15,931 nucleotides of DNA from an uncultured bacterium (GCA_964619725.1 CAZUFC010000169.1:1-15931); one strand, 5' to 3'. Positions 136-15,931 are shown, counted from the first letter of the stretch. The notes: generated by a model from the sequence alone, not told the origin. Numbers and translations: made by a program.

Positions 136-2511
136 TTAACACAACTTTCTTTTCCATAAGTTCGATTGGTCGAAAACTTGAAACCTGAAATTCCTGAATG
201 AATCATATCCGCCGGGATATCCTGTTATTAAAATCTCCGCCGCCTTTTCGATTAACTCAAAAACAGTCAATCCTCTATTCTCCGCTGACTTAATCAAACC
301 GATCAACACATCAATAAATTTGAGCGCCTCTTCAAAACTTATCTTAAAAGAAGGAACCGCGACGCCGGCTGCTCCATAATCCTCAACGGCCATCCTTGCA
401 AATCGATGAGTACACGCATCTCCGCAGGTTATCAGCAATAAGGTTTTCCCTTTTAAGCTTCCTTTACCGCCTGCTTCCTCAATGCTATTTTGAAGTTCAG
501 CCTCGCTGTGAGCCGTTACTATTACTATATTGTCGTCTTTTCTGATTGAATTCATTGAGGAGTTGATCTTGTAATAGGGCAATTCTTCGATTCTATTGAA
601 GGAATTTTTTAATGTCTCTGTTTTCGCTTCGCCGTTGTTCAGTTTGCTTAGGCTTTTTTCATCAATGATAACCTGAAAATTCGGTTTATTATCCTTAAAC
701 ATCGGCATTTGAGCTTTTAAATTAGAGTCCGCAATTGACGGATTGAACGTATTGAAAATATTTATGTTCATATTTTTTCTTTCGGCTTCTTTTCTCAGCA
801 AACCTAACAAATGAGATTGATTAACATCGAAAGGATTGCCGAATTTCGAATCCCCTGCGTTTAATCCGCCGGCATTATTGCAAATTATTAAGTTACCGCC
901 CTGGCCGTTGCCGGGACATGCCTGAAAAATTTTTTCCGCAAGCTCTCCAATAATCTTTCCTGCTTTTCCGCTGCCGCTCTCTGCATCAATCAAATACTCA
1001 TAGACTTTCATAAGGTTTTCACTTAGAATAAAATACTTGTGATCAATCGTTATTCTGGTTTTATCGTTCGCTTCCCCGATAAATAAATATGTGTTCCTAT
1101 CGTTACTGTACCTGGCGATATCCCGGATCATCGCGTCATTCTGCAATTCGTCTGACTTCTTTTCTGAAACTAAAATGTATTGCTCGTCGTCGATTTTTAT
1201 TGAATCGATGATATCCTCATCTTCGAGTTGATAATTGGATGATGAATCGCAAACAAAAACGCCTCTTACTCTATCTTTAATTTTAAACAGCAATAACTTT
1301 CCTCGACTGAAATTCCTCTGTGCAAGCAATTTCAGGTAACTTTGCAGCCTTTTCAATTGATTGGCTAGTGAGTTTCGATTGCTTCCTGATTGCTTATTGA
1401 TCAAAGCCGCTTGATAAAACATCGCTATTCGCATTTTCATTTCTTCTTGATTCAATTGTATGGTCGGCTTTAATCGCCGGTTTTTTTCATTCACATTCAA
1501 TCCGATTTCACTCTCGCCTGATTCGATTCCTTTTGGTTTAACGACCGAAAAAGAGACATTCCGGTTTTTGAAAATTTTTGTAATATGTCTCGTATGAGCA
1601 GCGCCGATATTCATTACAGCACATTTATCTGCTGAAGAATTCATAACATGTAAAACATTTTCCACCATTTTCTCATCACGTTTTATTTTCACGGAATCGA
1701 TCAGGTTTATCATTTTCTCTTTTTCATGGTTAAAAGCATCAACTTCCTTGCTCAAAGCTCTCCATCTATTGTAATTCTCCTTGAATGACCTGTTAAGGCA
1801 TGACGTATTAACCGCTAATTCATAAATCAAAGACAACAAAGCATCAGCATTGTTTCTGCATTCATTGAAAACTTCAATTAATTGGTTCAATCCGCTTACG
1901 TCTTCACCCGATATGTCATCCTCTTGCATTCGTAAAGCTTTCAATTGCTCCCTGACATCATTGTTTAATTTATCTTGAACTATCATTATTTCTTTTTGCA
2001 AATCATTAAATTGTCCTTTTAAATTTTCCAGACCGTTGGAAATACTTGGACTCTCAAGAATGCTTTTCTGCTCATTCCTGAGAGCGATATCATCTATCCC
2101 GCTGATACTGATTCGGGGAAAAGTCGCCGCAACGTATTCCATGCCTGATATCCTTGAATCGGCCAGTCTGCAAAACATAATTTTTTCTAATAATTCCCTG
2201 TTCTGAAAATTCTCATGATAAAAAGAAAAATCAAAAACACCCTCCGGATTTTCAATGCAAACGTTACGAATGTCATATTTTTCATACAACAGGCTGACGA
2301 TCGCCATAATATTTTTTTGTACTTCAACATTGTCGTGTTCCTCTTCGATTATCACTATCTTTCTAGTACCATTCCCCGAAAAGGTTCGTTTAATGACGCC
2401 TAATCTTTCGGGAATGCTCAAATGTCCCAAATCAAGCGTAGTCGAACAGCTCGACGTCAGCACGACCGATAAAACCAACATTTCTTGAAAAAGCTTTTTT
2501 ATTTTATTCAT
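136..2511 (-). CDS. Putative exported/lipoprotein: N-terminal EreA/ChaN/TIKI-like metallohydrolase domain with helical insertion, C-terminal CHAT/caspase-like domain
   Basis: Long ORF (track start 2529). ATG at 2511 is preferred: GGAG lies upstream and it overlaps the stop of the upstream gene. The N-terminus is basic, then hydrophobic, then LTSSC (weak lipobox). Motifs: IVIIEEEHD, VCIENPEG, ISGIDD, KRDEKMVENV, AVMNIGAAH. C-terminal motifs: IVIVTAH ... LLLITCG ... GAAGVAVPSFKISFEEALKF. Confidence 0.65.
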   Translation of the reverse strand: MNKIKKLFQEMLVLSVVLTSSCSTTLDLGHLSIPERLGVIKRTFSGNGTRKIVIIEEEHDNVEVQKNIMAIVSLLYEKYDIRNVCIENPEGVFDFSFYHENFQNRELLEKIMFCRLADSRISGMEYVAATFPRISISGIDDIALRNEQKSILESPSISNGLENLKGQFNDLQKEIMIVQDKLNNDVREQLKALRMQEDDISGEDVSGLNQLIEVFNECRNNADALLSLIYELAVNTSCLNRSFKENYNRWRALSKEVDAFNHEKEKMINLIDSVKIKRDEKMVENVLHVMNSSADKCAVMNIGAAHTRHITKIFKNRNVSFSVVKPKGIESGESEIGLNVNEKNRRLKPTIQLNQEEMKMRIAMFYQAALINKQSGSNRNSLANQLKRLQSYLKLLAQRNFSRGKLLLFKIKDRVRGVFVCDSSSNYQLEDEDIIDSIKIDDEQYILVSEKKSDELQNDAMIRDIARYSNDRNTYLFIGEANDKTRITIDHKYFILSENLMKVYEYLIDAESGSGKAGKIIGELAEKIFQACPGNGQGGNLIICNNAGGLNAGDSKFGNPFDVNQSHLLGLLRKEAERKNMNINIFNTFNPSIADSNLKAQMPMFKDNKPNFQVIIDEKSLSKLNNGEAKTETLKNSFNRIEELPYYKINSSMNSIRKDDNIVIVTAHSEAELQNSIEEAGGKGSLKGKTLLLITCGDACTHRFARMAVEDYGAAGVAVPSFKISFEEALKFIDVLIGLIKSAENRGLTVFELIEKAAEILITGYPGGYDSFRNFRFQVFDQSNLWKRKLC

Positions 2512-4048
2512 CGATCTCTCCAAATTCATCTATCAAATGTTTCTTGATGCTGTTCTTCAAATCAATTATTTTATCTCTTCGATCATATTGTTTCAAATTT
2601 ACAACCCCGGCCTCCATCAGATTTAAACTCTGGACCATTCCGTGTACAGCCATAAAGGCGTCTTCTTTGTTTTTTGCCTTCTGATACCGTTCTTTAAAAA
2701 AAGCATATGCATCGTAATAAAGTCCGTGAGTTATAATCAAGAAACCCAAAGCGAGCAACGACTTTACATCTTTTTTACGCCGCCGTTTTTTAATCAATTT
2801 AGAAAGTCTAGCGTCTTTTACCAGCCAAAATGTTCCTCCGTCAAAAAAGGCTTCATGATCATCGCAATTGTAAACATTCCACCGGTAAATCACATCAGCA
2901 TCAAGCGAAGGAGCCCTTTTCGGGTATAACGAATGATTTTTGCCGCTTGTTTCCCATTCATGTATCATTCTGCCTGTCTCGTCTTTAATTGTTATTCTGA
3001 ATTTTCTATTCCTGTATCCACAAGCCCATCGAAAGACAGGTTTTTCCAAAATTCCGCTATAGAAGGGAAAAGCCGGCTTGTCTTCTTCATCTGTCTCTCC
3101 CAGATACTGTCCGACAGAATAATACTCTTTTACGAAAGATTTCATGTATTTGAAAACGCTGTCCGGCATCCGCCTTATTCCGTGTCTGAGACTAACATCT
3201 GATATTACGGTGGTTTTCATATTATATTTCTCCCACAAAAGTCTTAAAAGTTTTCGATTGTTTTTCCAAATGGGAAATGTGCCGAACAATTTTATCGGAA
3301 TTTCATATGACCTGTCAGGTATCCCGTAATCAACCATAATTAATCCGTTTCTCATTTCAATTTTTTCAATATAGTAATGGCAATACCAATGAACCGCACT
3401 TTCAACCGGAATGTCTGAGTTTTCCAATACGTCTAAATCAATTCTTCTTTTGTCTGCATCCAATCCGTCAGCAACCCTTAATAAAGCCGTCAACAAGTCG
3501 ACGCGAATCTTTTCCTTAGTATTAGTACACTCAATCCGCAATTCCATCTCTTCAGGAATGTCCGATAAATCATCAACACCGTGTCCCCGGACTATTTCCG
3601 CGATAATCCTTGCATAATGTATATCTTTTTCGTGCAGACCCATAGAAGGATATCGATCGGGATGCAAGATGCTGCCGATTATCATTTCTTTTGAAAGTTC
3701 ATGATGAAAACGCCTGATGATGCTTAAACGAAAATCATCGTTTTCTCTCATTCCATTTAATTGGCTCTGTTCCAACATTTTATTGAGATATTCGGAATCT
3801 ACTGCATCCTTAAATTGCATCCCTACATCATGCAAATACACGGCAGCGGTCAATATCTTTCTTTCTTCTCTCGATAACGCTTTGATCGGTCTTTTGATCA
3901 GTTTGATCAAGTCTGCGGCGATGCATTTCACTCTTTCAGAGTGCTCAATAGAGTGATCAGTATAGTGACGATGCTGCGGTTGTTCCAGAATGACGGCCGC
4001 TTTTTCTTTTATCAGTTTTAAATCCAAAACCGTTTGTTTGGAATGCAT
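2504..4048 (-). CDS. HD-domain (HD-CE-like) phosphohydrolase with C-terminal DUF928-like beta-sandwich/helical region
   Basis: Motifs HYTDHSIEHSERV, AAVYLHDVGM (HD at 3827-3832), RRFHHELS, IVRGHG, LLRVADGLD, SAVHWYCH. ATG at 4048 has GAGG 7 nt upstream (track start 4111 has no such site). C-terminal motifs: PVFRW ... YPKRAPSLDADVIYRWNV ... HGLYYDA. Confidence 0.8.
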   Translation of the reverse strand: MHSKQTVLDLKLIKEKAAVILEQPQHRHYTDHSIEHSERVKCIAADLIKLIKRPIKALSREERKILTAAVYLHDVGMQFKDAVDSEYLNKMLEQSQLNGMRENDDFRLSIIRRFHHELSKEMIIGSILHPDRYPSMGLHEKDIHYARIIAEIVRGHGVDDLSDIPEEMELRIECTNTKEKIRVDLLTALLRVADGLDADKRRIDLDVLENSDIPVESAVHWYCHYYIEKIEMRNGLIMVDYGIPDRSYEIPIKLFGTFPIWKNNRKLLRLLWEKYNMKTTVISDVSLRHGIRRMPDSVFKYMKSFVKEYYSVGQYLGETDEEDKPAFPFYSGILEKPVFRWACGYRNRKFRITIKDETGRMIHEWETSGKNHSLYPKRAPSLDADVIYRWNVYNCDDHEAFFDGGTFWLVKDARLSKLIKKRRRKKDVKSLLALGFLIITHGLYYDAYAFFKERYQKAKNKEDAFMAVHGMVQSLNLMEAGVVNLKQYDRRDKIIDLKNSIKKHLIDEFGEIDE

Positions 4049-4575
4049 GAACGTACCTCTTCTCAGGCCTTTTAATTTTGAAATAAATTTTTGCTTTTCG
4101 CAGAATCTCATTCTTCAGGAATGATCAAACAGGCGTTATAATTTTTTCGAAGCCATTCGTCTTTTATACATGGTGATCCGTTGTCGCCGCAGGCTTTCCA
4201 ATTGCATCCAAAAACCTGGATATCTCGATAATCCTTCATTGTTAAATATCACCTTTGCAAATCAAATTCGTGATCTGACCTTGAGTCATCAAATTTAATT
4301 TAACATTTTGACGAATTGGAATCAATCATTTCAGTCTTGAAAATCATCATGGCTATTCCTCTTGCAGTCTAGCAGGCTCAGCAAGGTTTTAATATTTCAT
4401 GAAATTTTAGGTTCTGTTTCAATGGGGATTAAAATTTTTGTGAATCGCTTTTTCATTTGTCCCCAGCAATCAGCAACATTTGCGTTTGCGGAATATTTGC
4501 AATCTTTTCCAAAAACCAGGGCATTTTGATCATCACCGTTTTTTTATTCATTGATGGCAAGCAGAGCTTTCAATA

Positions 4576-4952: not shown

Positions 4953-5315
4953 ATGATGGAAAGCGAATTTTTATTTATTTTATCCCTTAGTTTTTTGGTC
5001 GTAGGCATCGTGATTCTTATATGGACATTGACCGTTAAGAAATATTCCATCCCGGATGAACAGAAGAAGGAATTTGATCCAGCCGATTCACTCGGCAGTG
5101 AACTGTTTCGGGGTGATAATAAGTTTGAAGAATTCTCTTACGATTTTGATGACAAAAGCGGTAATAATTCGAATTCATCTTCCGAACAAGGCGAGTCCGA
5201 AGCGAATAATGAAAATCCTCAAAGAGGAAAAAACCTTACTTTCTTATTTCCTCTCTTATTCCTCGGTTTTCTGATCAGTCTGATAATTATCTTCTCTATA
5301 GTAATAATGGATTAA
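4953..5315 (+). CDS. Small hypothetical membrane protein: two TM helices flanking an acidic/Ser-Asn-rich loop
   Basis: 120 aa. Hydrophobic segments FLFILSLSFLVVGIVILIW and FLFPLLFLGFLISLIIIFSIVI. Central low-complexity acidic linker. Good promoter upstream, weak RBS. Confidence 0.7.
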   Translation: MMESEFLFILSLSFLVVGIVILIWTLTVKKYSIPDEQKKEFDPADSLGSELFRGDNKFEEFSYDFDDKSGNNSNSSSEQGESEANNENPQRGKNLTFLFPLLFLGFLISLIIIFSIVIMD

Positions 5316-5645
5316 ACAGCGCATTCCAAAAATTCGATTCCCGTTTCAAATTTCGTTGCCGGACAGACGCTGCAGTCTCTGACCAAAATTCGCTATTTTG
5401 GGAACTGATCAAAAGGGGATTACAATTTTTTCGCATCGCTTCTTCTATTATCCTGGATGATCCGTGCTATCCGCAGTTGCGGATGACCCTCCGGCGTTTT
5501 TGTATTGAAATGGTTCTGAGTATTTTAAATAATTTCGAAAGAAATTCAAACTGTCGAAAGGGTCTGCAGCGAAAAACCGACAATCGAAGTGCGATCATCC
5601 CGGAGCATTATTTAATAAGAATCCATGTAAAAACGTTTTTTTTTC

Positions 5646-5674
5646 TTGACAACGAAAATTTCTCCCTTTAGGAT
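5646..5674 (+). promoter_or_regulatory. Putative sigma70-type promoter of the tubulin/vWA/Hsp70 operon
   Basis: TTGACA (5646-5651), 17-bp spacer, TAGGAT (5669-5674), with AT-rich tracts upstream. SD GGAGG at 5694-5698. Confidence 0.6.
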
Positions 5675-5701
5675 AGCGATTAGTTAATTTTCTGGAGGTC
5701 A

Positions 5702-7072
5702 ATGATGTTGCGTTGTCCTTATCCCGATTGCGGCATAATGGAAATTGAAGAATTTAAAAAAAAACCTGACAAGATTATAGGTTTCTGTCCCAGTTGTGAA
5801 GAAGGCGTCATCAGGTGTCCTCATTCAGGATGCGGCGCTTTAAATAGAATTTTGGCACATTTTTGCAAAAAATGCGGTCGTGAAATCAACTGGTTCCATA
5901 TTCACGGCAGATTCAAGAAAAAATTCAGAATAAAAACCGTTTTCCAACCTTTAAACGAACACATTTTCCGTGCCGACGTCAGCAACTGCTTGCTTCATCT
6001 CGGAGAAACGCGCAGCATCCCGGTGCAATTCGAACAGATTCACGGCTTTTTTATCCTTCAAGTGAACAACGGGCATTACTTCATAATCAAACCATTCAAA
6101 GGATCATCTGATGAAGCGCTTGCGCACCAGGGTTCAGTCGCTCCGGTTGAAGTAGGACAGGAAGAGCATTTCATTCACAAGCCTTTATACTATAAGCACA
6201 ATGTGTACATGACATCAGAAAGGCAAATATACGGGCTCAGTATGCTGAATACGTCTGAAAAGAGACCTCCCGTTTATAAAACTGAATCCTGTGATGAAAA
6301 AATTTTTCAGAATCCGCTGATTATTCAAGACAAAATGTTTTTTGCTGAGGGCAATGAAGAAGAAATTCGACTAAAGTTTTTAAATATGGAAGCTCCAGGC
6401 GAAATTACGGTCCACGATGATTGCTTTCAGGATTTCGTATCGCAAATAATTCCAGCCTGGAAGAACGAATTGTTCTTTTTCGATTCTAAAAACATTTTCC
6501 GTTACGCTTTAAACGGCAATCAATTGAAAAAAAAGGTATCCGTTCCCAATCCCTGTTTATCGAACCGCAAACCGAGATTCAGAATCCCCGCATTTCCCCA
6601 GGCGGACGACAATTACGTTTATTTATGCGGTTATAACGACAATGAAAACCGGACGCTTTATGCTATCGACAGGCGATTGAATATACGAGAGATTCCGAAT
6701 ACGTCCAGCGGAAAGATTCAATTTACTCTCGTGACTAAACCGACAAGATTATATGTGGCGAATGATGACGGAATTTTTTGTTTGAACAATTCGGGAAGGA
6801 TTCTTTTCCAGGAGCGAGCCGGTTTTTGCGCTGAATTCGCTCCACTGATATACGGCCATTACATTATATTCAACCAACTGGTATCACAGACACAACATTC
6901 TGAAAAATTAATGATTTACGATAGAAATTTGAATCCCGTCATGCAGAAACAGGTAGAGGATCTGATAGCAAAACCGATAATATTTACTGATCGTTTGGCT
7001 CTCATGAAAAAAGAAAAAATAAAACAGAACGAAAAATGTTTTCTCTACATGCACAAATTTGAAGTAATATGA
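5702..7072 (+). CDS. Double zinc ribbon + PQQ-like beta-propeller protein
   Basis: Four Cys pairs: CPYPDC, CPSC, CPHSGC, FCKKCG. Repeated blade-like motifs KPLYYKHNVYM, NPLIIQDKMFF, FPQADDNYVYL, APLIYGHYIIF, KPIIFTDRLAL. No signal peptide. SD spacing favours the second ATG (5705). Confidence 0.7.
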   Translation: MMLRCPYPDCGIMEIEEFKKKPDKIIGFCPSCEEGVIRCPHSGCGALNRILAHFCKKCGREINWFHIHGRFKKKFRIKTVFQPLNEHIFRADVSNCLLHLGETRSIPVQFEQIHGFFILQVNNGHYFIIKPFKGSSDEALAHQGSVAPVEVGQEEHFIHKPLYYKHNVYMTSERQIYGLSMLNTSEKRPPVYKTESCDEKIFQNPLIIQDKMFFAEGNEEEIRLKFLNMEAPGEITVHDDCFQDFVSQIIPAWKNELFFFDSKNIFRYALNGNQLKKKVSVPNPCLSNRKPRFRIPAFPQADDNYVYLCGYNDNENRTLYAIDRRLNIREIPNTSSGKIQFTLVTKPTRLYVANDDGIFCLNNSGRILFQERAGFCAEFAPLIYGHYIIFNQLVSQTQHSEKLMIYDRNLNPVMQKQVEDLIAKPIIFTDRLALMKKEKIKQNEKCFLYMHKFEVI

Positions 7073-8532
7073 AAATGAAAAAAAAATCGAATCTGATATG
7101 TTTAATTTCTTCTTTGTCATTATTTCATTTATTAATTGCCTGTTTCATCTCAGATGTTAACGCCCAAAATCGTTCCTGCCTGCTGGTAGACAAATCCGGC
7201 AGTATGCTCGGTTTTCTCAAAGCAGAATCGAATGGTTATCCCAGCGTCCTGGATGAATTAATCGATCACATCATCCAATATTCAAACAGCGTAAATTCTG
7301 CACCTTTGGATATTTACGAGTTTTCCTCATGCCGGAAGGAGATTCTGACGAGCATACCGACCGGCATGCCGATTGATCCGGCTTGTTACGGTCAGGAGAC
7401 GAAAATTGATCAAGCGCTTCTCGAAGTTTTCGAAAAAAATTACAGTCTGGTTTTCATACTGACGGACAACGTCCAGGATGAGCATCATTCGTCAATTTCG
7501 GGAACTGAAATGGGTAGAATAACACATCTATACGAGCATTTCAGGAGTCCCCGAGTATCGCAGGTATTGATTATACCGGCCATACTGCCTTTCAATGACT
7601 GGATTTATTTGCCTGCTGAGGACTTTTCCGAAAAAGACCCTGAACTAATAAGGAATCTTGTCGAAAACAATACTCTGTGCAACGATTGCAATATCGGGAA
7701 AATCGCTTTTTATGAACGCTACACCAGGATAAAATGGGAGGGTCCCCGGGGATTGATGATCTATTGCATTACTTTCGACGGCAAGGCGAATGAGGAGGCG
7801 CGAAGCATCTCCGAATCGCTTGCATCCGGATTAAATACAAAAGCCATTCTAACCAAACCGCTTGGAAATTCCGTGATAAATATGGAACCGGCCAATTTAA
7901 GCAACGGAACGGTGAAGTATAAAGAAACCGAGTTCAAAGAACCCACGTTGTTTCTTTATCCTTCTGACGACGGCTATATCGCCTACGGAGAAGCGCGTAA
8001 AAAGACAGGGCTCGGATTAGACTATTACGAGGGGATATTTCATGTAAAATTCACATCGCCCTTCGATTATTTTAAACTCAACACTTCTGCCGATGTCGAA
8101 GGCAGTGAGATCAATTTGAGCGTCCAATCATTCGGCAACTGGGAAGCAATAGGTTTCAGGGAATTTCAGGCGCAACCGCAAATACTCCCGCCGAAGATCA
8201 TCGGACAGGTGATCGAACCTGACGCTTATTCAAGAATTTATCAAATAACGATTAAAATCCCCTGCGATTCTTTGAAATTAAAATATTGGCCGTTGTCGGA
8301 GTTTTTTCACGTTGCCTTTCACGACTGTGGATGGGTTACGGGAAAGCTTAAGCTTGATATGCAAATACCGGCGCACAGCGTACAGTTGTCAAGCCGCATT
8401 TTTGACAGCTATTTCACCAGGGAATTGACGGGTTTTGACAGGATTTTCAGTTCTCATGATCTCGTAAAATTTCTCACCGATCAAAACATCAATCTTTCGA
8501 CTTTAGTCAGCATTGAGAGTCAAGAAAAATGA
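7069..8532 (+). CDS. Secreted von Willebrand factor A (MIDAS) domain protein with beta-rich C-terminal region
   Basis: Sec-type signal (MKMKKK, hydrophobic core, VNA|Q). LLVDKSGSM is a DxSxS motif (7189-7203), followed by ETKIDQAL (Thr) and VFILTDN (Asp). ATGA overlap with the upstream gene. Confidence 0.75.
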   Translation: MKMKKKSNLICLISSLSLFHLLIACFISDVNAQNRSCLLVDKSGSMLGFLKAESNGYPSVLDELIDHIIQYSNSVNSAPLDIYEFSSCRKEILTSIPTGMPIDPACYGQETKIDQALLEVFEKNYSLVFILTDNVQDEHHSSISGTEMGRITHLYEHFRSPRVSQVLIIPAILPFNDWIYLPAEDFSEKDPELIRNLVENNTLCNDCNIGKIAFYERYTRIKWEGPRGLMIYCITFDGKANEEARSISESLASGLNTKAILTKPLGNSVINMEPANLSNGTVKYKETEFKEPTLFLYPSDDGYIAYGEARKKTGLGLDYYEGIFHVKFTSPFDYFKLNTSADVEGSEINLSVQSFGNWEAIGFREFQAQPQILPPKIIGQVIEPDAYSRIYQITIKIPCDSLKLKYWPLSEFFHVAFHDCGWVTGKLKLDMQIPAHSVQLSSRIFDSYFTRELTGFDRIFSSHDLVKFLTDQNINLSTLVSIESQEK

Positions 8533-9047
8533 AAATTTATTTTCCTTCTCATGCCTTTTGGATACTGATGGGCAGTTTTATGCTCACGGTCGTACTTATA
8601 ATCATTATTGTATTTATTGTTACAAGAGGTAAGCGAAATTTCTCAGTCCGTCTTCTCAACGATGATAATCCCTTCATTTTTACTCTTGGAATTTTCAAAA
8701 CAAGCCAAAAGATACCGGAACTGGGGAGAATAAAACGGCACGGCAAAAATCAGATACTGTTCAAACCCGCACAGGGAATAACTCCCCAGAATTTCGACGA
8801 AAAAACGCCTTTGTCGGCAATGGGCAACGGCTGCGTACTGAGAATGGTCAAATCGGACCAGTCATACGAATTGCATATAAAAGAGGCTACTGAGAAAATC
8901 ACTGATACGATAGATCAGGAACCCGACATCGTCATGGTCGGCGATGGGGGATTCAGTTTTACCGATACATTCGACGGTCCGTCAGAGCCGACGAAAACGG
9001 AAAGCTTCGATGAACATTTAGATATGGAAGAAGATTTTTTTTCTTAG
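8529..9047 (+). CDS. Single-pass membrane protein with cytoplasmic beta-rich domain and acidic C-terminal tail
   Basis: TM segment FWILMGSFMLTVVLIIIIVFIV followed by basic TRGKR (positive-inside rule). Tail ends SFDEHLDMEEDFFS. ATGA overlap with the vWA gene. Confidence 0.75.
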   Translation: MKIYFPSHAFWILMGSFMLTVVLIIIIVFIVTRGKRNFSVRLLNDDNPFIFTLGIFKTSQKIPELGRIKRHGKNQILFKPAQGITPQNFDEKTPLSAMGNGCVLRMVKSDQSYELHIKEATEKITDTIDQEPDIVMVGDGGFSFTDTFDGPSEPTKTESFDEHLDMEEDFFS

Positions 9048-9076
9048 ATAACATTTCTCATTACGGAGGACAACAC

Positions 9077-9448
9077 ATGAAACGCATCCGCATGGTGACG
9101 ACTCTGCTACTAGGTTTCTTATATTTTCTGATTTCCGGCAACGCTTTTGCAGCGATGATCTATCATGATCCGATCGTGCCCATCCCTTCGGTCAAGGTCA
9201 AAATTCTGGTCACCGCCGTCGTGATAATCATTTTTTATATCATAATGAGATTTCTCTTTTATGTCATGCTCGTCGATAAATTTGACATGAATCCCAAGAC
9301 GGCTTTGGCTTTTCATTATTCCGTTTTCCTGCTTTTCAGTCTGGGTTTCGGTATTCTGATGTTTTTTGAGTATTGCGCGGATTGGGTCATACTTACAATT
9401 GCGGCTTTATGGTTGATTACGTCAATCCTTACCGCCGTTCTGCTCTGA
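9077..9448 (+). CDS. Small integral membrane protein (signal-like N-terminus plus about 3 TM helices)
   Basis: SD GGAGGA at 9065-9070. Signal-like N-terminus ending AFA|A, then three hydrophobic segments. Confidence 0.8.
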   Translation: MKRIRMVTTLLLGFLYFLISGNAFAAMIYHDPIVPIPSVKVKILVTAVVIIIFYIIMRFLFYVMLVDKFDMNPKTALAFHYSVFLLFSLGFGILMFFEYCADWVILTIAALWLITSILTAVLL

Positions 9449-9462
9449 AAGGAGGCAATCCG

Positions 9463-12400
9463 ATGGTCGAACCAACGGAAATCAGTTTAAAAGATGGGGA
9501 ACACAAGGAACTTTCAGAATTCAAATCCATAGCGCCCACCATTCTGATCGGTCTCGGCGGTACCGGCAAGGAAGTTCTTATGCTGATAAGACGCTTTTTT
9601 TACGAAAGGTATAAGGTTATCGGTTTTCCCATAGTCGGTTATCTGTGGATCGATACCGATCCTAATTACCAGGCGGTACAGGAGCAGCAATCGGACGATT
9701 TTATTACCAGCCAGATTCAGTTCACCGATGAAGAAAAAATTTCCGCTGTCGTTCCTCAGGCTGAGTACATGAGTTATTTCAAAGAACCTCAAGCCAATCA
9801 CAATATTTTCAAATGGCTTTCTTTCAATCTGAGAGCATACGGTAATGCCGGAATAGTCAAAGGCGCTTATCAGGTACGTCCTTTAGGCAAACTCGCCTTC
9901 TATCACTTCCATGACAAAATAAGCAACCGAATTAAAACAATCTGCAATAACTTACGTTTGCTGAACATCCCGGAGATGATGAGGCAGTACGATGTTCAGG
10001 TCGATACGACAAACACGAACATATACATCATTTCATCAATAGCCGGTGGAACGGGATCAGGCATGTTGCTGGATACAGGTTTTCTAGTCAACAACGTCCT
10101 GATGCAGGATCAACCCAAAATAACTTCCTTTATCGCTTTGCCTACTATATTCGGACAACTCGGACAGAGAGATTCCGCCCTTTATTTCGCCAATGCATAC
10201 GCTACTCTGAAGGAATTAAACTATTATTACACTCACAAACCCTCATTCAGCAAGCCCATTGACGGCGAACACAGCGCTGATGTCGATCTGGAAACGCGGA
10301 ACGCGGATTTTCATAATTATACGCCGAACTGGGAAAACTCGGATAATCCTGAACCCGTCATAGGTCCCCCTTTTCATAATTGCTATCTGATCGACAATCA
10401 GAACAAAGCCGGAAGAACCATTAATCCTGATAAAAGATTTGAGATATTCAATATGATATCAGAAAAGATATTCCTGGATTTCGAAAAAGCCCAGTTTTCC
10501 GAAGCCATGAGAAGCGCCAACGTCAACACTCTGACCAGAACCCTCGACGATTACCCTCATACGGTCAAGGACCCTGAAGCGAAAGACATCTCCGGCAAGC
10601 CTCTCATTCTCTACAAGGACGTCTATCCCTGCCGGTACGCCTCTATCGGCTTGTCTAAAATATTCGTCGATCTTGACCGGTTGAAACACGCCGCTTCTTA
10701 TTACCTTGCTGGAAAATTGACCGACCTCTGGATAATGAATCATAAAATACCCGGCAGTTTCGAAGATATCGTAAAATCGAATATCTCAGAATTGGGAGTA
10801 TCGAGGATGCAGATAGAAAAAGCCATCGCAGCCTCAGATGCCCACGGCAATGAACTTTACCAGGTACTGAATAATAAATTCGAACAACATAAGGCCGAAT
10901 TTTTAAACAGAGTTTCAAAACATGAAGATTTCGTCACCGCATTGGATAAATTGAAAGCCACTTATGTTCGGCAATTCCACAAGCCGAGCGATGACCCCAA
11001 TACTTGGGGCACATACATAAAAGTAATCGAAAAAAGCAACAGGTCTGGTACGCTCAGCACATTAACGGCAAACCTGAGCAGTGAACGGAACAAACTGCTG
11101 AACGATGCCTATACCGGCTTTGATCTTACGGAAGAGTATCTGAAAGCATACGCAAAGAATCTTCATCTTTCAGCACGATCGCTAAACGCCAATGCTGAAG
11201 GTATGAAGAATCAGGCTTCAAATGCCAATAAAGAATTTTCAAAATACCGCAACAGGATACTGGAAATTCAAAGAAGCTGGTCCAATAATGTAATCTTTCA
11301 CAGAAACGGCACTTTGAAAATACTGCTGGAAAAAGCGCTGGATTGTTTAAAACGTTATTTCCAGCAATTGGCTTACAGCTTTGTCTTCCATTCTTCGAGT
11401 AAAATTTGTAATGAGCTTGTCAACAGAATTGGCGAAAAAAAATCACTGGAGGATAAAGACGGGAAAACCATCGTAAAAAGGTCGGGCCTGATACAGGAGA
11501 ACTGGAAGCTGCAGGGACTCCTCACGAACCTTAATAAAAGATTAAAGAACAAATTCGAATCGTTCAAGCAGGCTAAAGTCGAAGACCGGAATACCTCCCT
11601 GACCAAGGATTTCGATTTTCAGACGGAGGTCATTGACGCTCAAAGGGGCGAAGAAGAGGAGTTTATTTGGCTGACCAAATTAGCTGATAAATTCTTTGAT
11701 GAGTCTGAAGTCGGAGCGTTATCCGGCACTAAAACGTATTTGAACGACATAGAGCATCTCGAAGAAAACCTTCTCAAATTCTGTTTTAAAAATATCGGCG
11801 ATATCGGTAAGGACCTGGATGCGCTTGAACTGTTTTTCAATAACTTCGCTGAGAGAACCCATCGTGAGAACAAAATTCAGGCGACCATTAACATGAGCGA
11901 TTCCTGGCTTCCGCCGGCATTGAATCAACCGGCCCTGAGAAACACGAAATTCGTCGAACAACGACATTTCGGGCTTAACCGCGTTAACAGCTCGCAATAC
12001 AAAGAATTCGTCAATATCGTTCAAAAAAGAAATTCGGCCATAGCCAGAACAGGCAACTATAAGGAATCGATCATTTTTTACTCGGAAACTGCCGGTTTTC
12101 CTCTGTTTTATATTCGCGATATTGAAAAATGGAGGGCGACGTATTTGAGGGAAATACAAGTAAGGCCGGAAGAGAGACACAATGAACTCGACTGGGAAAA
12201 ATTCAATGATCTGATACCGCCTGATCAGAAAGAAGCCCAACGTCTCATTGAAGCCAATGAAGTATTTCTGCTGGGCGTGATTTTGCGCATTATTCGCGCG
12301 ACGGACAAAGGCAATTTCTTCTATGAACAGGAAGAATACGGCATAACCGATCAGCGGCTGCTCGGCTCTAAAGTAGTCGCTATTCAAACTCTTAAAGCGC

Positions 12401-12765
12401 AGGATCAGCAGCGGGAAATCATCATGGAGAGAATCGAAACTTCCATCCAGCAGGCCAATCCTAATGAACTGCTTGACCTGCTGGGGCTTTTGACCTATTA
12501 CACCAGAAAAATTTTCCCGATTGAATGGGTTTTAATTTCCAGGACGACGGAGGATAGAAGGTCGCCTGAATACACCTGCCTGGAAAAAAGACGCGTTGAA
12601 ATTTACAATAATTTGCGCAATCCCTACCCGAAAGAAAAACTCGAAAATAAAATTAGAGCGATAGTCAAAAATGTCGATGATGTGGCTCAAAAAATTAAAG
12701 GCACTGAACTCTACGCATTGAAACGTGAAATCGGTAAACTGGAAGAAACGGAAGCGGTTGAATGA
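9463..12765 (+). CDS. Large FtsZ/tubulin-like GTPase (Tubulin_2 / FtsZl1-type) with long helical C-terminal region
   Basis: PTILIGLGGTGKEVL (GLGGTG at 9550-9567), YLWIDTD, GAYQVRPLGKLAF, IISSIAGGTGSGMLLD (tubulin signature at 10042-10062), ANAYATLKEL. ATG at 9463 has SD AAAGGAGG. The track's start at 9373 would overlap the upstream gene. Confidence 0.9.
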   Translation: MVEPTEISLKDGEHKELSEFKSIAPTILIGLGGTGKEVLMLIRRFFYERYKVIGFPIVGYLWIDTDPNYQAVQEQQSDDFITSQIQFTDEEKISAVVPQAEYMSYFKEPQANHNIFKWLSFNLRAYGNAGIVKGAYQVRPLGKLAFYHFHDKISNRIKTICNNLRLLNIPEMMRQYDVQVDTTNTNIYIISSIAGGTGSGMLLDTGFLVNNVLMQDQPKITSFIALPTIFGQLGQRDSALYFANAYATLKELNYYYTHKPSFSKPIDGEHSADVDLETRNADFHNYTPNWENSDNPEPVIGPPFHNCYLIDNQNKAGRTINPDKRFEIFNMISEKIFLDFEKAQFSEAMRSANVNTLTRTLDDYPHTVKDPEAKDISGKPLILYKDVYPCRYASIGLSKIFVDLDRLKHAASYYLAGKLTDLWIMNHKIPGSFEDIVKSNISELGVSRMQIEKAIAASDAHGNELYQVLNNKFEQHKAEFLNRVSKHEDFVTALDKLKATYVRQFHKPSDDPNTWGTYIKVIEKSNRSGTLSTLTANLSSERNKLLNDAYTGFDLTEEYLKAYAKNLHLSARSLNANAEGMKNQASNANKEFSKYRNRILEIQRSWSNNVIFHRNGTLKILLEKALDCLKRYFQQLAYSFVFHSSSKICNELVNRIGEKKSLEDKDGKTIVKRSGLIQENWKLQGLLTNLNKRLKNKFESFKQAKVEDRNTSLTKDFDFQTEVIDAQRGEEEEFIWLTKLADKFFDESEVGALSGTKTYLNDIEHLEENLLKFCFKNIGDIGKDLDALELFFNNFAERTHRENKIQATINMSDSWLPPALNQPALRNTKFVEQRHFGLNRVNSSQYKEFVNIVQKRNSAIARTGNYKESIIFYSETAGFPLFYIRDIEKWRATYLREIQVRPEERHNELDWEKFNDLIPPDQKEAQRLIEANEVFLLGVILRIIRATDKGNFFYEQEEYGITDQRLLGSKVVAIQTLKAQDQQREIIMERIETSIQQANPNELLDLLGLLTYYTRKIFPIEWVLISRTTEDRRSPEYTCLEKRRVEIYNNLRNPYPKEKLENKIRAIVKNVDDVAQKIKGTELYALKREIGKLEETEAVE

Positions 12766-12795
12766 TAATCCCGGCGGCAAAAGAGGAAAACAAAC

Positions 12796-15627
12796 ATGAA
12801 ATGTCTTTCATGCAAAGAATGGGAAATAACGAATGACGATGTTTTCTGCTCAAAATGCGGCAGACGGCTAAGAGAGATCGAAGTATATCCGAATCCCGAA
12901 GACGGCTTGATCGTCTATCTTCCAGGAAATAATACCCAAAAAAAGACGGAATATTTCGACATACGGCTGACCAATACAGGATCGTTGCCTTACGATTTTC
13001 AGTGGGAAATCGTTAATGACAGAAAAAACGCCTGTCGGCTCCAACTGAAGGGCAAGGACAGGGACAGCATGTCCCGGGAAAATCTGATCGTTAATCCTGC
13101 TCAATCCCCAATGAATATCCAGTTAGCCGTCGACATGACCAAAATGTCCGATAAAGAATTTTCTAAACTGCTAATTCATTTTACGGAAGAAAACGATCAC
13201 CACCGAACCATTCTTCCGATCTACGTATCACCCGTACCGTCTGAAATCGAAGATATCAATATCGATATCGATGAGGAAATGACTATCATCGCAGGGAACA
13301 ACTCACCGCCCGCTGTCTTCAAAGGAGCTCTCGAACTGAACAAAAGCTTTGTGGTTTTGACGAAAGCAGAATGCAGTCTCTCGAATGTCGAAATCGTACC
13401 ACGGAAGCCCATGCCCGTCCCTATCAACGGCTTCAATAACGGTAGAATGGAATTCGATATTCTTATCGATTACTCGAACTGGGACCAAAAAATTTATGAT
13501 AATGCAAAAAAACAACATGTCGATGCTGAATTGTGTTTCTTCTTTCTGCACATGGAGGATACCCCGTTTACCAAAAAGACTAAGATTCTTCTGCGTGAAC
13601 CTGCCAGTCTCGTAAGTTCAAGACGTCAATACATCATCGATAAACTTTTCATCGGAAAAAAGGAGAAAATGACCTTCTATATTCGTAATGATGGGGGATT
13701 GCCCCTGACCATTCATCACGACAGGATTTTTTCGCATGATCCGTGGATTAAACCGGTGATAACGTATCCTCCTTCTGATGATAGTAATAATGTCAGACTT
13801 GATCCCGGGAAAGCTGCCACAGTTAATGTGGAATTCGCCTGTAGAAATTTAAAATCAGAAGAGGAAGGATATCAATCTTACCTGCATTTTCCCTGGGATC
13901 AAGATAAGGAACTGGTCGTCGGATTGGTTATTACGGAAATATCTAAAATGCACACCATAACCGACTATCTTGCGGTCGATTTCGGAACCACGAATACCTG
14001 CTGCGCATATATCGACGGTTCAGGTACTCCGCACCTCGTGGTTCTTGACCCCGACAAAAAAGCAGAAGTAATTCCTTCAATACTTCTGTTCGACGATGTT
14101 GAAAATCAGGAGAATCCTCAAATTTCAATCGGAAAAGCAGCCGCAGCCACAAGATTTCTGCCGGAAAGAATCGGCGCTTCAGTGGACTCTTTTAAACGCC
14201 ATATCGGAACCGATAAGAAGATAATGATAAGCGACGGCGAAAACAATGTTTTATATACTCCCGATCGGCTGGTTGAATTCTATATAAAAAAAATAATTGA
14301 AAATGCTGAATCTTCTCTTAACATGAAAGTGGACAAAGTTATCGCCACTTTCCCGCCGGCTTTTTCTTTGAAGAAACTAATCGCTCTTAAACAGGTTTAT
14401 CGTCGATTAAACATCCATACATACGAAAAAGAGCTGGATGAGGCTTCTGCTGCCGCCATATACTACATCTTCGCATCAAAAGAATTTGAGAATACGGGTG
14501 AAATACAGCATGTAATGGTTGTCGATTTCGGCGGCGGCACCACAGATTTGGCTATGATACAATGCCGTTTTCAAAAAGATGAAAGGAACGGCAAGCAGAA
14601 AATAAAAGCAAAAATATTGGGAGTTGACGGCGATCCTCATTTCGGCGGTGAAGACGTTACTGAGGCTATTATAGAACTTCTTGCATCGAAATTCATTACG
14701 GCAGTACAAAAAGCGTACCCCAAAGCAACATTACCGACATTCAGTCGACACAGCGAAAAAAATCTGATATTTGAAAAATTCGATCGTTCAAGCCGTAAAA
14801 ATTATTTTTCACTTTATCGAATTGCTGAGGATTTTAAGATTAACTTTGATAAAGAAGATGTCCCTAATCAAGAGGCAAATTTATCGCTTGATCTCATCAT
14901 AGATGACGAAACAGTGTTAGAGACCGCCACTGTTATCGTCAAAAAAGAGGAAATGAATGATGCAATACGTGAAAAAATTGAAAACATTATCGGCTTGATC
15001 AATAAATTGAAAAAGAAGACAAGATATCAAACGAACGGGAGCTTTGACCGGATTGATCATATTTTCCTCGCCGGCAAATCTTCAAGGATAAGACTCTTCA
15101 AGGATAAAATACGCGCCGAATTCAAATCATCGAAAATAATAACGGATTCCGATATTGCTAAAGAATGCGTCGCGTTGGGCGCCGAAGAATTTTATCAGTT
15201 GACACATTCTCCGATGTCGGGCGTGGAAATGGCGATTGACGGGTTCCTTTATAAAGCGCCGAACGATATAGGGATGGAAAGCAGAAATCAAAACAGGGAG
15301 CGCGTCTTCATTCCTCTCGTCAAAGGAGGAGAAAGCCTGCCTGCAGAGGGAAAAGTCAGGATAAGATTTTCCGATTCAGGGAAAGTTGGAATAAGAATTA
15401 TGGAAAGCTTGCGCGGTCAGACGCTTATCGAAAATCACAGAAACGACTTTCACAATCTGGCGAAAATAGACGTCGATCTTAATGATTATGATGTTATTTA
15501 TACTCCAGGCGAGCTGAAAAACGCCGAACTCAAACTCCATATCGATAAATCGAGAAATATGAGTCTCTTTTTCAAAATCGGAGATAACGATATCGGTCCT
15601 ATTAATGTCGTCACCGAAGGTGAATGA
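12796..15627 (+). CDS. Zinc ribbon + Ig-like (ASH/PapD-like) domains + divergent Hsp70/DnaK-like ATPase fusion
   Basis: N-terminal CLSC...FCSKCG. Ig-like motifs IRLTNTG and YIRNDGGLPLTI...PWIK...LDPGKAATVNVEF. Hsp70 motifs LAVDFGTTNT, IPSILLF, SFKRHIG, ATFPPAF, DEASAAAIYY, VVDFGGGTTD, FGGEDVT, IAEDFKI, IFLAGKSSRI, AKECVALGA. SD GAGG upstream. Confidence 0.88.
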   Translation: MKCLSCKEWEITNDDVFCSKCGRRLREIEVYPNPEDGLIVYLPGNNTQKKTEYFDIRLTNTGSLPYDFQWEIVNDRKNACRLQLKGKDRDSMSRENLIVNPAQSPMNIQLAVDMTKMSDKEFSKLLIHFTEENDHHRTILPIYVSPVPSEIEDINIDIDEEMTIIAGNNSPPAVFKGALELNKSFVVLTKAECSLSNVEIVPRKPMPVPINGFNNGRMEFDILIDYSNWDQKIYDNAKKQHVDAELCFFFLHMEDTPFTKKTKILLREPASLVSSRRQYIIDKLFIGKKEKMTFYIRNDGGLPLTIHHDRIFSHDPWIKPVITYPPSDDSNNVRLDPGKAATVNVEFACRNLKSEEEGYQSYLHFPWDQDKELVVGLVITEISKMHTITDYLAVDFGTTNTCCAYIDGSGTPHLVVLDPDKKAEVIPSILLFDDVENQENPQISIGKAAAATRFLPERIGASVDSFKRHIGTDKKIMISDGENNVLYTPDRLVEFYIKKIIENAESSLNMKVDKVIATFPPAFSLKKLIALKQVYRRLNIHTYEKELDEASAAAIYYIFASKEFENTGEIQHVMVVDFGGGTTDLAMIQCRFQKDERNGKQKIKAKILGVDGDPHFGGEDVTEAIIELLASKFITAVQKAYPKATLPTFSRHSEKNLIFEKFDRSSRKNYFSLYRIAEDFKINFDKEDVPNQEANLSLDLIIDDETVLETATVIVKKEEMNDAIREKIENIIGLINKLKKKTRYQTNGSFDRIDHIFLAGKSSRIRLFKDKIRAEFKSSKIITDSDIAKECVALGAEEFYQLTHSPMSGVEMAIDGFLYKAPNDIGMESRNQNRERVFIPLVKGGESLPAEGKVRIRFSDSGKVGIRIMESLRGQTLIENHRNDFHNLAKIDVDLNDYDVIYTPGELKNAELKLHIDKSRNMSLFFKIGDNDIGPINVVTEGE

Positions 15628-15628
15628 A

Positions 15629-15931
15629 GTGAACAGCATTAGAAGAAACAGATCATTACATCTTACTTTGGTTTTGTTATTCGCTGTTTTCATCATATTC
15701 TTTCTTCTGATCTTCCTGGCATCAGGAAAAGGCGTTTCAGAAGAGAGAAAAATAAAAATATCGCAGGATTTGGATAAAAACGGTTCATGGCAAGAAAACG
15801 AAAATAATCCGCCAACTCTCCTGGTTCCGGAAGAAACGAGAGAAATTGAATTTCGCGTAACAGTCCAATACGAACCCACTGAAAAAATTAAAAAGAAATT
15901 GATCCAATTGGGTTCTCTCAATACAGATGCG
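15629..15931 (+). CDS. Membrane-anchored hypothetical protein, 5' part only (continues beyond window)
   Basis: Frame is open from GTG at 15620/15629 to the window end: MNSIRRNRSLHLTLVLLFAVFIIFFLLIFLASGKGVSEERK...EIEFRVTVQY... Basic N-terminus plus one TM helix. It abuts the upstream stop (15627), with AAGGTG as possible SD. Confidence 0.75.
   Translation, partial: MNSIRRNRSLHLTLVLLFAVFIIFFLLIFLASGKGVSEERKIKISQDLDKNGSWQENENNPPTLLVPEETREIEFRVTVQYEPTEKIKKKLIQLGSLNTDA

Follow-up and report, generated by a model that had tools for sequence, protein, structure and literature searches.

The FtsZl1 proteins were defined by Makarova and Koonin (2010; PMC2875224), and in the portions of that article drawn on here, to which all our statements about it refer, the neighbors of their genes include vWA proteins with an intact metal ion-dependent adhesion site (MIDAS), kinases, a new GTPase, OmpA, and membrane families without a name; a role in membrane remodeling was proposed for them. 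The supplementary table of the same article has one FtsZl1 neighborhood with a 1083-aa gene assigned to the GrpE COG, and one in which a vWA gene is followed by a 1626-aa gene assigned to the DnaK COG. The family Tubulin_2 is equated with the FtsZ-like proteins in the portion of PMC9871819 used here, where their sparse distribution is stressed. A further precedent is given by the GAP1-N2 DO-GTPase conflict systems (Kaur, Burroughs, Iyer, and Aravind, 2020; PMC7159879), which carry three “non-overlapping” variable themes, tubulin with vWA, HSP70 with GrpE, and kinase with PP2C and vWA, mainly in Firmicutes and Actinobacteria; the tubulin/vWA and HSP70/GrpE themes were read as parts of nucleoside triphosphate (NTP)-dependent conflict systems. 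Here we describe a related cassette of seven genes, g1 to g7, from an uncultured bacterium. It is found on contig C169 (CAZUFC010000169.1), which was analyzed over its whole length of 15,931 nt and is called the window in what follows, and which belongs to a genome bin of 9.17 Mb in 344 contigs, 90.9% complete. In order, the genes are predicted to encode a zinc (Zn)-ribbon propeller protein (g1), an exported vWA protein (g2), a protein with a transmembrane (TM) helix and a cytosolic tail (g3), a small membrane protein (g4), a long tubulin-like protein (g5), a Zn-ribbon protein with an Hsp70 ATPase domain (g6), and a single-pass membrane protein (g7). The cassette is a variant of the predicted FtsZl1-vWA operon kind, and its DO-GTPase-free core is newly defined here.

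The likeness to the FtsZl1-vWA operons lies in a long protein of the FtsZ/tubulin type that is extended at its C-terminus, an intact-MIDAS vWA protein that is often exported or membrane-bound, several membrane proteins, a sparse distribution, and the standing of these systems as predictions made without experiments. The preliminary description of this locus had spoken of an undescribed system, and this stands insofar as no characterized system matches it in full, PADLOC-DB 2.0 giving no match for g1 to g7 or for the core proteins of two related loci, L006 and L069; FtsZl1-vWA-membrane operons as such, however, were predicted in 2010 (PMC2875224). What differs is that Hsp70, DnaK and zinc have no occurrence in the main text of that article, as far as it is drawn on here, and that a Zn-ribbon propeller, a 3-TM protein encoded before the tubulin and a Zn-ribbon Hsp70 are not described there as a conserved core. 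The DO-GTPase systems (PMC7159879) are similar in having a tubulin with a C-terminal helical domain, a membrane vWA protein with an extracellular β-rich domain, and an HSP70 with GrpE; they also share Zn-ribbons, accessories of the kinase/PP2C/vWA, trypsin, PEGA, SH3, and FGS (FGE-sulfatase) types, and a role near the membrane. They differ in that tubulin and Hsp70 stand in one cassette here, with the content of all three themes present once the relatives are included; that the carriers are Acidobacteriota, Latescibacterota, Pseudomonadota and a rare phylum; and that the Zn-ribbon propeller and the 3-TM protein are constant.

DO-GTPases are P-loop GTPases of the TRAFAC class and often carry Zn-ribbons at the N-terminus. 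The DO-GTPase models PF19975 and PF19993 had no match in the window's own genome (90.9% complete), in a search where the PF19993 control was positive (Corynebacterium) and the PF19975 control was positive nowhere. No DO-GTPase Pfam match was obtained for the window or for the scanned neighbor proteins, and a search of 27 cassette loci for a conserved Walker-A family was negative. Among the scanned proteins there was likewise no Pfam match named GAP1, which is a three-domain partner, or FNIII-repeat, the presence of GAP1 models in the library being unconfirmed and several cassette proteins being without a family. The core recurs across phyla and lacks what has been regarded as the defining GTPase switch of the closest published systems. 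A literature search, with bioRxiv supplements and subscription journals outside its reach, turned up no paper on a tubulin-Hsp70-vWA system beyond PMC2875224, PMC9871819, and PMC7159879, and no experimental study of a Tubulin_2/FtsZl1 protein.

Distribution of the cassette and its accessory genes

In a collection of 5.8 billion proteins g5 has 618 relatives of similar length, the best of them 43% identical. We assembled 80 loci with related long Tubulin_2 genes, each with up to 10 kb of flanking sequence, and found the partner genes by iterated profiles; the loci were retrieved from genome contigs with the tubulin alignment as the query, the single g5 protein having retrieved none. The vWA family is present in 23 of the 80 loci, the Hsp70 family in 20, the Zn-propeller in 17, and any of these in 25; vWA and Hsp70 occur together in 18 loci (15 of the 42 for which at least 20 kb of sequence was covered), and all three partners are found in 14. 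The order Zn-propeller, vWA, 3-TM protein, tubulin, Hsp70 seen in the window is repeated in L006, L008, L028, L051, L069, L070, L072, L083, and L084, and L047 would be colinear too if its unclustered 545-aa first gene is a propeller homolog. Loci from Pyrinomonadaceae/Blastocatellia/Chloracidobacterium (L031, L032, L037, L054, L055, and L056) have the Hsp70 gene upstream, on the same strand. Carriers belong to the Acidobacteriota, Candidatus Latescibacterota, Alpha- and “Delta”-proteobacteria, UBP9, and Candidatus Xenobia; across these unrelated phyla the genes of the set stay together, and on this point the preliminary description is borne out. The comparisons point to a core of five families, namely the Zn-ribbon propeller, a vWA-TM receptor, a 3-TM anchor, the long tubulin and the Zn-ribbon Hsp70, accompanied by GrpE-like factors. 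They mark the cassette as a system that is genuine and conserved, and accessory in character.

The distribution within taxa is patchy. In the family of the L006 genome the vWA protein is found in 7 of 121 genomes and a Tubulin_2 protein of any kind in 19 of 121, and in every one of the seven vWA-carrying genomes a Tubulin_2 gene lies 0.6–1.1 kb from the vWA gene on the same contig. The vWA-TM family is real but rare, with 253 representatives at E ≤ 1e-30 among 1.84 billion cluster representatives. The lineage of the window is isolated: among 40 other genomes taken as relatives, 13 of which share only the phylum, Tubulin_2 was found in two only, and these proteins are distant (24–31% identity). 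The closest locus, L091, comes from a metagenome (42% identity) and keeps the order g4-like gene, tubulin, Hsp70; the metagenome search gave four loci only, none of them extending past the Hsp70 gene. A 79-row tubulin tree, calculated as a quick tree, mixes phyla and contains two large clades with other neighbors, made up of 16 cyanobacterial and 23 Ignavibacteriota/Bacteroidota rows. The Ignavibacteriota/Bacteroidota loci (L013, L015, L018, L021, and about 20 more) have a regular cassette of their own, with genes of approximately 165, 187, 164, 445, 185, and 264 aa followed by the tubulin, and none of the window's partners is present in it.

The genes that accompany the core vary. Acidobacterial cassettes encode Zn-ribbon-tagged TPR, Ser/Thr kinase-TPR, PKD, SH3, YARHG, F5/8-type C domain and TM2 proteins, and also a cytosolic VWA_2 protein, PP2C, an M23 peptidase and an amidohydrolase; the kinase and phosphatase partners that the preliminary description had found missing are thus both present in relatives, and their absence does not hold for the cassette type. 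Big_5, cadherin-like and laminin-G proteins, besides PKD proteins, are found in relatives. By PADLOC, a Ser/Thr kinase among the accessory genes of relatives resembles PD-T4-6, and there is also an accessory match to the protease part of RT-protease. L065 carries trypsin, PEGA, and FGE-sulfatase, and in L069 a Trypsin_2 domain is fused to the 3-TM protein, with four Latescibacterota homologs in the same family (F9). Fusions of tubulin with TIR are seen in P0005, where the TIR domain is C-terminal, and in P0054, where it is N-terminal; P0109 is a long Tubulin_2 protein with a C-terminal double Zn-ribbon. P0005 falls into the window's own five-row clade, with a Shimodaira-Hasegawa-like approximate likelihood ratio test (SH-aLRT) value of 100 in the quick tree.

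In L069 a MotA/ExbB and OmpA pair is identified by Pfam; each of the five Latescibacterota loci has a member of the MotA/ExbB family (F10). Among the proteins tested from these loci, three of three were ZorA-like and two of two ZorB-like, at E-values from 1e-12 to 4e-21. The likeness to Zorya consists in a MotA-like coiled-coil protein and a MotB/OmpA protein encoded after the cassette in the Latescibacterota relatives; the differences are that the pair is not in the window, that the E-values are modest, that no ZorC/D/E-type partner was seen in these loci, and that the link to the cassette is by context only.

Predicted proteins of the cassette

A hydropathy scan finds a signal-like hydrophobic N-terminus in g2 (residues 9–27), one TM segment in g3, four hydrophobic segments in g4, one TM segment in g7 (residues 20–38), and none in g1, g5, or g6. 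Together with motifs and folds, this agrees with the topology put forward in the preliminary description, in which the two NTPases, one tubulin-like and one Hsp70-like, are on the inner side of the membrane and the vWA protein is on the outer side.

The g5 protein, the sole Tubulin_2 protein encoded in its genome, matches PF13809 at E 3.9e-58 over profile positions 1–354 of 356. An AlphaFold (AF2) model built from 31 aligned sequences, with a predicted local distance difference test (pLDDT) score of 86.2 and a predicted template modeling (pTM) score of 0.75, has the two-domain fold of tubulin and FtsZ. In comparison by VIA, ranks 1–17 are all CetZ, tubulin, FtsZ, TubZ, or PhuZ (Z 25.2–13.4), with CetZ at 25.2 and 24.5, gamma-tubulin at 21.7, TubZ at 21.1, FtsZ at 20.2, and the best unrelated fold at 9.7; among the Foldseek matches listed, all belong to the tubulin/FtsZ superfamily, the best being CetZ (2.1e-5). 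The sequence profile, searched against the PDB, found no tubulin/FtsZ chain and coiled-coil proteins only. The nucleotide loops GLGGTG and AGGTGSG are conserved, G30-L-G-G-T-G35 being near-invariant and S192, G195-G196-T197-G198, and G200 being invariant in 31 of 31 sequences, and we take these glycine-rich loops to be T1 and T4. N244 and E251, also invariant in the 31-sequence alignment, would belong to the T7 loop, with its catalytic acidic residue for polymerization-dependent GTP hydrolysis. The structurally aligned range extends to residue 900–920, though about 300–350 residues align, and part of the C-terminal region may pack on the core in place of the last CetZ/tubulin helices. Residues 430–685 form a long (~250-aa) helical bundle without a specific match (it is BAR/vinculin-like at Z ~8, which is not specific), after which comes a C-terminal α/β region; the C-terminal part of g5 matches Tubulin_2 clusters only in the Atlas (0.78–0.82).

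The g4 protein is 32% identical to the product of the gene upstream of the closest tubulin, that of L091. By iterated hidden Markov models, its residues 28–121 are similar to a C-terminal 3-TM module found in 24 of 58 genes directly upstream of tubulin, the window's included, and this covers all cassette types that could be examined. The acidobacterial variants of the 3-TM protein have an additional periplasmic domain of ~140 aa, and the latescibacterial ones a trypsin domain. These similarities suggest that g4 is not a stray membrane protein but the counterpart of the 3-TM protein that precedes the tubulin.

A vWA domain was not detected in g2 by Pfam. The g2 family profile matches vWA domains in the PDB (ITIH1, 6fpy, at E 3.6e-6; also 4rck, Ro60 and integrin alpha-X), and the MIDAS pattern D41xS43xS45, T111, D133 is invariant in 21 of 21 family members. 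Compared VIA-wide, residues 34–262 of an AF2 model of g2 (pLDDT 69.4) match vWA domains at Z 8.0–6.2 (about 40 of 50 rows), and residues 265–487 match pilin/adhesin sandwiches (CfaE at Z 6.8, CooA at Z 6.5); Foldseek returned nothing for this model at E ≤ 1e-3. The Z values alone are middling, and it is profile, motif and fold combined that argue for g2 being a vWA protein.

The preliminary description had counted an exported vWA protein and three membrane proteins. Export of the vWA protein holds, whereas this protein and the first of the membrane proteins are the product of one gene in 21 of 21 relatives, 518–633 aa long, in all of which one TM segment at residues 380–495 is followed by a cytosolic tail of 100–170 aa. 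The g2 profile also matches g3, and the tail of g3 aligns with the tails of the 21 relatives. At the junction of the two genes, GAAAAATGA, they overlap by ATGA, and one additional A would join the frames. An assembly error at the A5 run was considered as a source of the split, and was rejected since the contigs of three samples agree. Because these contigs span the junction without an indel, the split is real in the DNA, and the ectodomain is left as a soluble exported protein, apart from the protein with the TM helix and the tail; all three samples belong to a single study, and the window itself may derive from one of them. Searched against the PDB, the profile of the cytosolic tail found profilin alone, at E ≥ 0.2, which is not significant.

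For g1 by itself there is a weak DZR match (E 0.0068). Among members of its family DZR is matched in 9 of 20 and PQQ_2 in 8 of 20, and the family profile matches BamB and PQQ propellers at E 1e-13 to 6e-18; the putative propeller is visible at the family level only. In relatives, the propeller gene lies directly 5′ of the vWA gene. The Zn-ribbon profile weakly matches archaeal ArnA (5a8i, E 0.011; 8s05_C, E 0.0066; window 5702–5900), and the vWA profile weakly matches archaeal ArnB (8s05_A, E 7.5e-4; window 7069–7850), with 5a8j also among the weak ArnA/ArnB matches. In the ArnA/ArnB complex a Zn-ribbon protein and a vWA protein bind each other, and the pairing of the two modules may have a precedent there, but the matches are too weak to build on.

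The g6 protein matches HSP70 (PF00012) at E 2.6e-16 over residues 394–796, and its alignment to the DnaK structure 2v7y gives DFGTTN, K467, E549, DFGGGTTD, and GDPHFGGED, which we take to be the phosphate-1 and phosphate-2 motifs and the catalytic K/E residues. Invariant in 21 of 21 family members are C3, C6, C18, and C21 of the Zn-ribbon, D395, K467, E549, D577, and D584, and likewise G397, T398, and G579–581, and the ATPase site is complete. In the family 371–604 residues precede the ATPase domain, and 130–178 aa follow it in complete relatives (149 in g6), a tail that is apparently too short for a full substrate domain and lid; Pfam and PDB matches of g6 end at the ATPase domain. Of the Hsp70-Ig fusion in the preliminary description the Hsp70 part is retained, and the “Ig” comes down to one relative, L037 (PF22544, E 1.4e-5). 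Compared with the DnaK-GrpE pair, g6 is alike in having an ATPase domain with all catalytic motifs, and in the GrpE-domain partners found in relatives and in its own genome; it differs in that its family has the N-terminal Zn-ribbon and a β-rich extension of 370–600 aa, in that the residues after the ATPase domain are without a sequence match, and in that the GrpE-like proteins are long and coiled-coil.

The window, which is cut at 15931, contains no GrpE-like gene, and no DnaJ or J-domain was found by Pfam among 10 window proteins and 112 neighbor proteins. GrpE-domain proteins are encoded next to the Hsp70 gene, or one or two genes from it, in L006, L037, L016, and L031. The window's own genome has two canonical GrpE genes and six genes for long coiled-coil GrpE-like proteins (on C249, C267, C307, and C333), and GrpE-like genes on C333 and C267 are followed by paralogs of g7, with 85% and 62% aa identity to it, respectively; the sequence of C333 stops where that of the window does. 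Because of these six genes, two of which are followed by paralogs of g7, g6 very probably has GrpE-like partners. In the six long proteins the GrpE domain is C-terminal. C249 and C267 are paralogous modules in which GrpE-like A and GrpE-like B are followed by a membrane protein of ~315 aa, and on C307 a GrpE-like gene is paired with that of a 600-aa exported protein which starts with a vWA-like DxSG motif.

Function of the cassette

We propose, with moderate confidence, that the operon encodes a membrane-anchored, NTP-driven surveillance or defense assembly of the FtsZl1 (Tubulin_2)-vWA kind, built around two NTPases. A regulated part in conflict or surveillance, be it an anti-phage, anti-invader or envelope-damage response, is the most likely role because of the patchy distribution, the mixing of phyla, the TIR fusions and the accessory repertoire, and the accessory genes of the relatives, to judge from their domain content, follow the grammar of conflict systems. 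The mechanism we infer from the parts, for which sequence, fold, topology and conserved linkage were described above, would run as follows. The vWA protein would bind a ligand outside the cytoplasmic membrane, either an invader protein, a damaged envelope component or a neighboring cell, and the signal would be relayed via the TM helix and the tail to the propeller. The tubulin-like protein would assemble with GTP on the 3-TM anchor, and the Zn-ribbon modules would serve as a common docking tag bringing clients to this scaffold, the client being Hsp70 in the window, and kinase, TPR, PKD, SH3 and other proteins in the relatives. The Hsp70/GrpE cycle might set the threshold or take the assembly apart. 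Output in this organism would consist of the polymer and its membrane partners; relatives would have TIR, trypsin, FGE-sulfatase and ZorAB-like modules as further outputs.

Several points weigh against a surveillance or defense assembly. None of the core proteins searched (g1 to g7, and those of L006 and L069) matches a PADLOC model; the DO-GTPase, the defining part of the published conflict systems, was not found; and an enzymatic effector is not to be seen in the window. The break between g2 and g3 in this organism falls immediately ahead of the TM helix of the receptor, which may uncouple the sensor from the transducer. The ZorA- and ZorB-like matches could arise from a generic MotA/MotB and coiled-coil likeness, the TIR fusion P0005 sits on a long branch of the quick tree, and patchiness also fits niche functions other than defense.

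A cytoskeleton-based receptor system of a hitherto unrecognized bacterial kind can be suggested only tentatively, and we think it rather doubtful as a whole: the vWA receptor and the propeller would trigger a GTP-dependent polymer of the tubulin fold on the 3-TM anchor, a portable Zn-ribbon tag would recruit interchangeable clients (Hsp70, kinase, TPR, PKD, and SH3, with TIR joined by fusion), and resetting would fall to an Hsp70 without a lid, aided by GrpE-like factors close to the membrane. If this were true, the signal-induced supramolecular assemblies known from eukaryotic immunity would have a prokaryotic counterpart in the receptor-polymer system, one that operates with no DO-GTPase/GAP1 switch.

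The FtsZl1 proposal of membrane remodeling, as given in the portion of PMC2875224 drawn on here, offers the main alternative, possible but doubtful, of a cytoskeleton for remodeling or maintaining the envelope. No invader would be involved: a 3-TM-anchored polymer would shape or repair the cytoplasmic membrane, Hsp70/GrpE would recycle the polymer, and the vWA protein would tie it to the wall or outer layers. Hsp70 uncoats clathrin, which is an analogy for such recycling. A tubulin fold joined to a helical bundle with some BAR/vinculin likeness (Z ~8, not specific) would suit this function, as would the membrane association of all partners, the OmpA and MotA/ExbB neighbors in Latescibacterota, the M23 peptidase, SH3, PEGA, and amidohydrolase in relatives, some of which are wall-binding or wall-cleaving domain types, and the fact that the window has no visible toxic effector. 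Strong patchiness, down to 7 of 121 genomes in one family, and the mixture of phyla in the tubulin tree speak against it, however, and tubulin-TIR fusions and variable accessories of the conflict type are hard to square with housekeeping.

An apparatus for surface adhesion, cell contact or a gliding type of movement in microbial-mat life, with the ectodomain as an adhesin coupled to the cytoskeletal NTPases, is unlikely. In Myxococcus, focal-adhesion complexes comprise a vWA adhesin, a Zn-ribbon protein, a TolQR-type motor and the actin-fold MreB, and these are an analog of the cassette, not a homolog. The ectodomain does combine a vWA domain with CfaE/CooA-like adhesin/pilin sandwiches, relatives encode PKD, Big_5, cadherin-like and laminin-G proteins, and the window's DNA was found in microbial-mat metagenomes of one study; but the adhesin fold matches are middling (Z < 7), the conserved core includes no outer-membrane or secretion component, and the TIR, trypsin and FGE-sulfatase partners do not suit motility. 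A motor could be seen in the MotA/ExbB and OmpA pair of L069 and in the F10 family of all five Latescibacterota loci, yet this motor pair is confined to one phylum. Least probable is that this genome has the cassette only as a remnant, in decay or partly inactive: the g2/g3 split lies exactly where 21 of 21 relatives are continuous and is seen in the contigs of three samples, no GrpE-like or effector gene is in view in the window, and the genome has three g7 paralogs and, scattered over four short contigs, six long GrpE-like genes, but all seven frames are open, the Hsp70 catalytic residues and the tubulin nucleotide loops are intact, the ATGA overlap is a normal coupling arrangement in which a two-chain receptor may work, and missing partners may lie past the contig end.

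A surveillance or defense assembly of the proposed kind would pair a tubulin-fold NTPase with an actin-fold NTPase in one predicted membrane machine, and the notion of Zn-ribbons as address tags amounts to a testable hypothesis of docking. The carriers include cultivable genera (relatives of Niveispirillum and Azospirillum, L028 and L036), and since some of them belong to such genera the function of FtsZl1 proteins can be tested directly.

Gene layout and neighboring features

The seven plus-strand open reading frames (ORFs) occupy 5702–15931, with intergenic gaps of −4, −4, 29, 14, 30, and −23 nt (Table 1). At least seven tightly packed genes on one strand had been reported for the locus, and this is what we find, each gap being 30 nt or less, or an overlap. 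All seven genes have open frames with no internal stops. Promoter-like sites do not occur above chance frequency (30 observed, against 25.5 ± 5.4 expected in shuffled sequences), and for this reason a single promoter at the candidate site upstream of g1 is merely compatible with the data. No terminator-like site was found on the plus strand within 5702–15931, and an operon structure for g1 to g7 is plausible from the layout. For g5, the ATG at 9463 (1100 aa) is most likely the start rather than an alternative TTG at 9373 (1130 aa), because GGAGG stands 8 nt upstream of the ATG. The operon is broken inside its last gene, g7, at the contig end (15931); no continuation past g7 was found among the contigs of its own genome, and Logan contigs of four runs end at 15906. 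DNA of the window was detected in microbial-mat metagenomes of one study. Rfam gave no matches.

Table 1. Positions of the cassette genes and candidate promoter in the window, and of the motor-type pairs in three related loci.
Feature	Sequence	Position	Strand	Basis
Candidate sigma-70-like promoter, TTGACA-17-TAGGAT, 28 nt 5′ of g1	Window	5646..5674	+	10/12 matches
g1, predicted double Zn-ribbon and PQQ/BamB-type β-propeller, cytoplasmic, 456 aa	Window	5702..7072	+	Family profile
g2, predicted exported MIDAS-vWA protein with adhesin/pilin-like β-sandwich region, 487 aa	Window	7069..8532	+	Profile, motif, fold
g3, predicted TM helix (residues 12–30) and β-rich cytosolic tail, acidic C-terminus, 172 aa	Window	8529..9047	+	
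g4, small membrane protein, 123 aa; apparently a minimal form of the pre-tubulin 3-TM protein	Window	9077..9448	+	
g5, long Tubulin_2/FtsZl1 protein, 1100 aa	Window	9463..12765	+	PF13809, fold
g6, predicted Zn-ribbon, ~370-aa β-rich extension, Hsp70 nucleotide-binding domain and 149-aa tail, 943 aa	Window	12796..15627	+	
g7, predicted single-pass membrane protein, 109+ aa, open at contig end	Window	15605..15931	+	Hydropathy
MotA/ExbB with long coiled-coil tail and MotB/OmpA, after the cassette	L069	17257-19890		
MotA/ExbB with long coiled-coil tail and MotB/OmpA, after the cassette	L072	17326-19155		
MotA/ExbB with long coiled-coil tail and MotB/OmpA, after the cassette	L083	17515-19842		

Upstream of the cassette, the minus strand carries two overlapping genes (136–4111), one for a 535-aa HD-CE protein (PF24391, E 1.2e-27), which in PADLOC weakly resembles Cas3-HD as well as DRT UG24 in its C-terminal part, and one for a 797-aa protein without a family, PADLOC or Atlas match; the pair may be a separate two-gene nuclease module beside the cassette. 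An ORF of 120 aa at 4953–5315, outside the tight cluster and 386 nt upstream of g1, has a hydrophobic segment at both ends and an acidic Ser/Asn-rich middle, and is without a family. Two copies of an intergenic repeat of ~80 nt, 73% alike, lie at 4118–4192, just upstream of the minus-strand HD-CE gene, and at 5401–5476, about 225 nt upstream of g1. By blastn there are about 60 more partial copies, at 72–90% identity and in both orientations, spread over more than 25 contigs of this genome, and the repeat may be a regulatory element or one resembling repetitive extragenic palindromic (REP) sequences or miniature inverted-repeat transposable elements (MITE).

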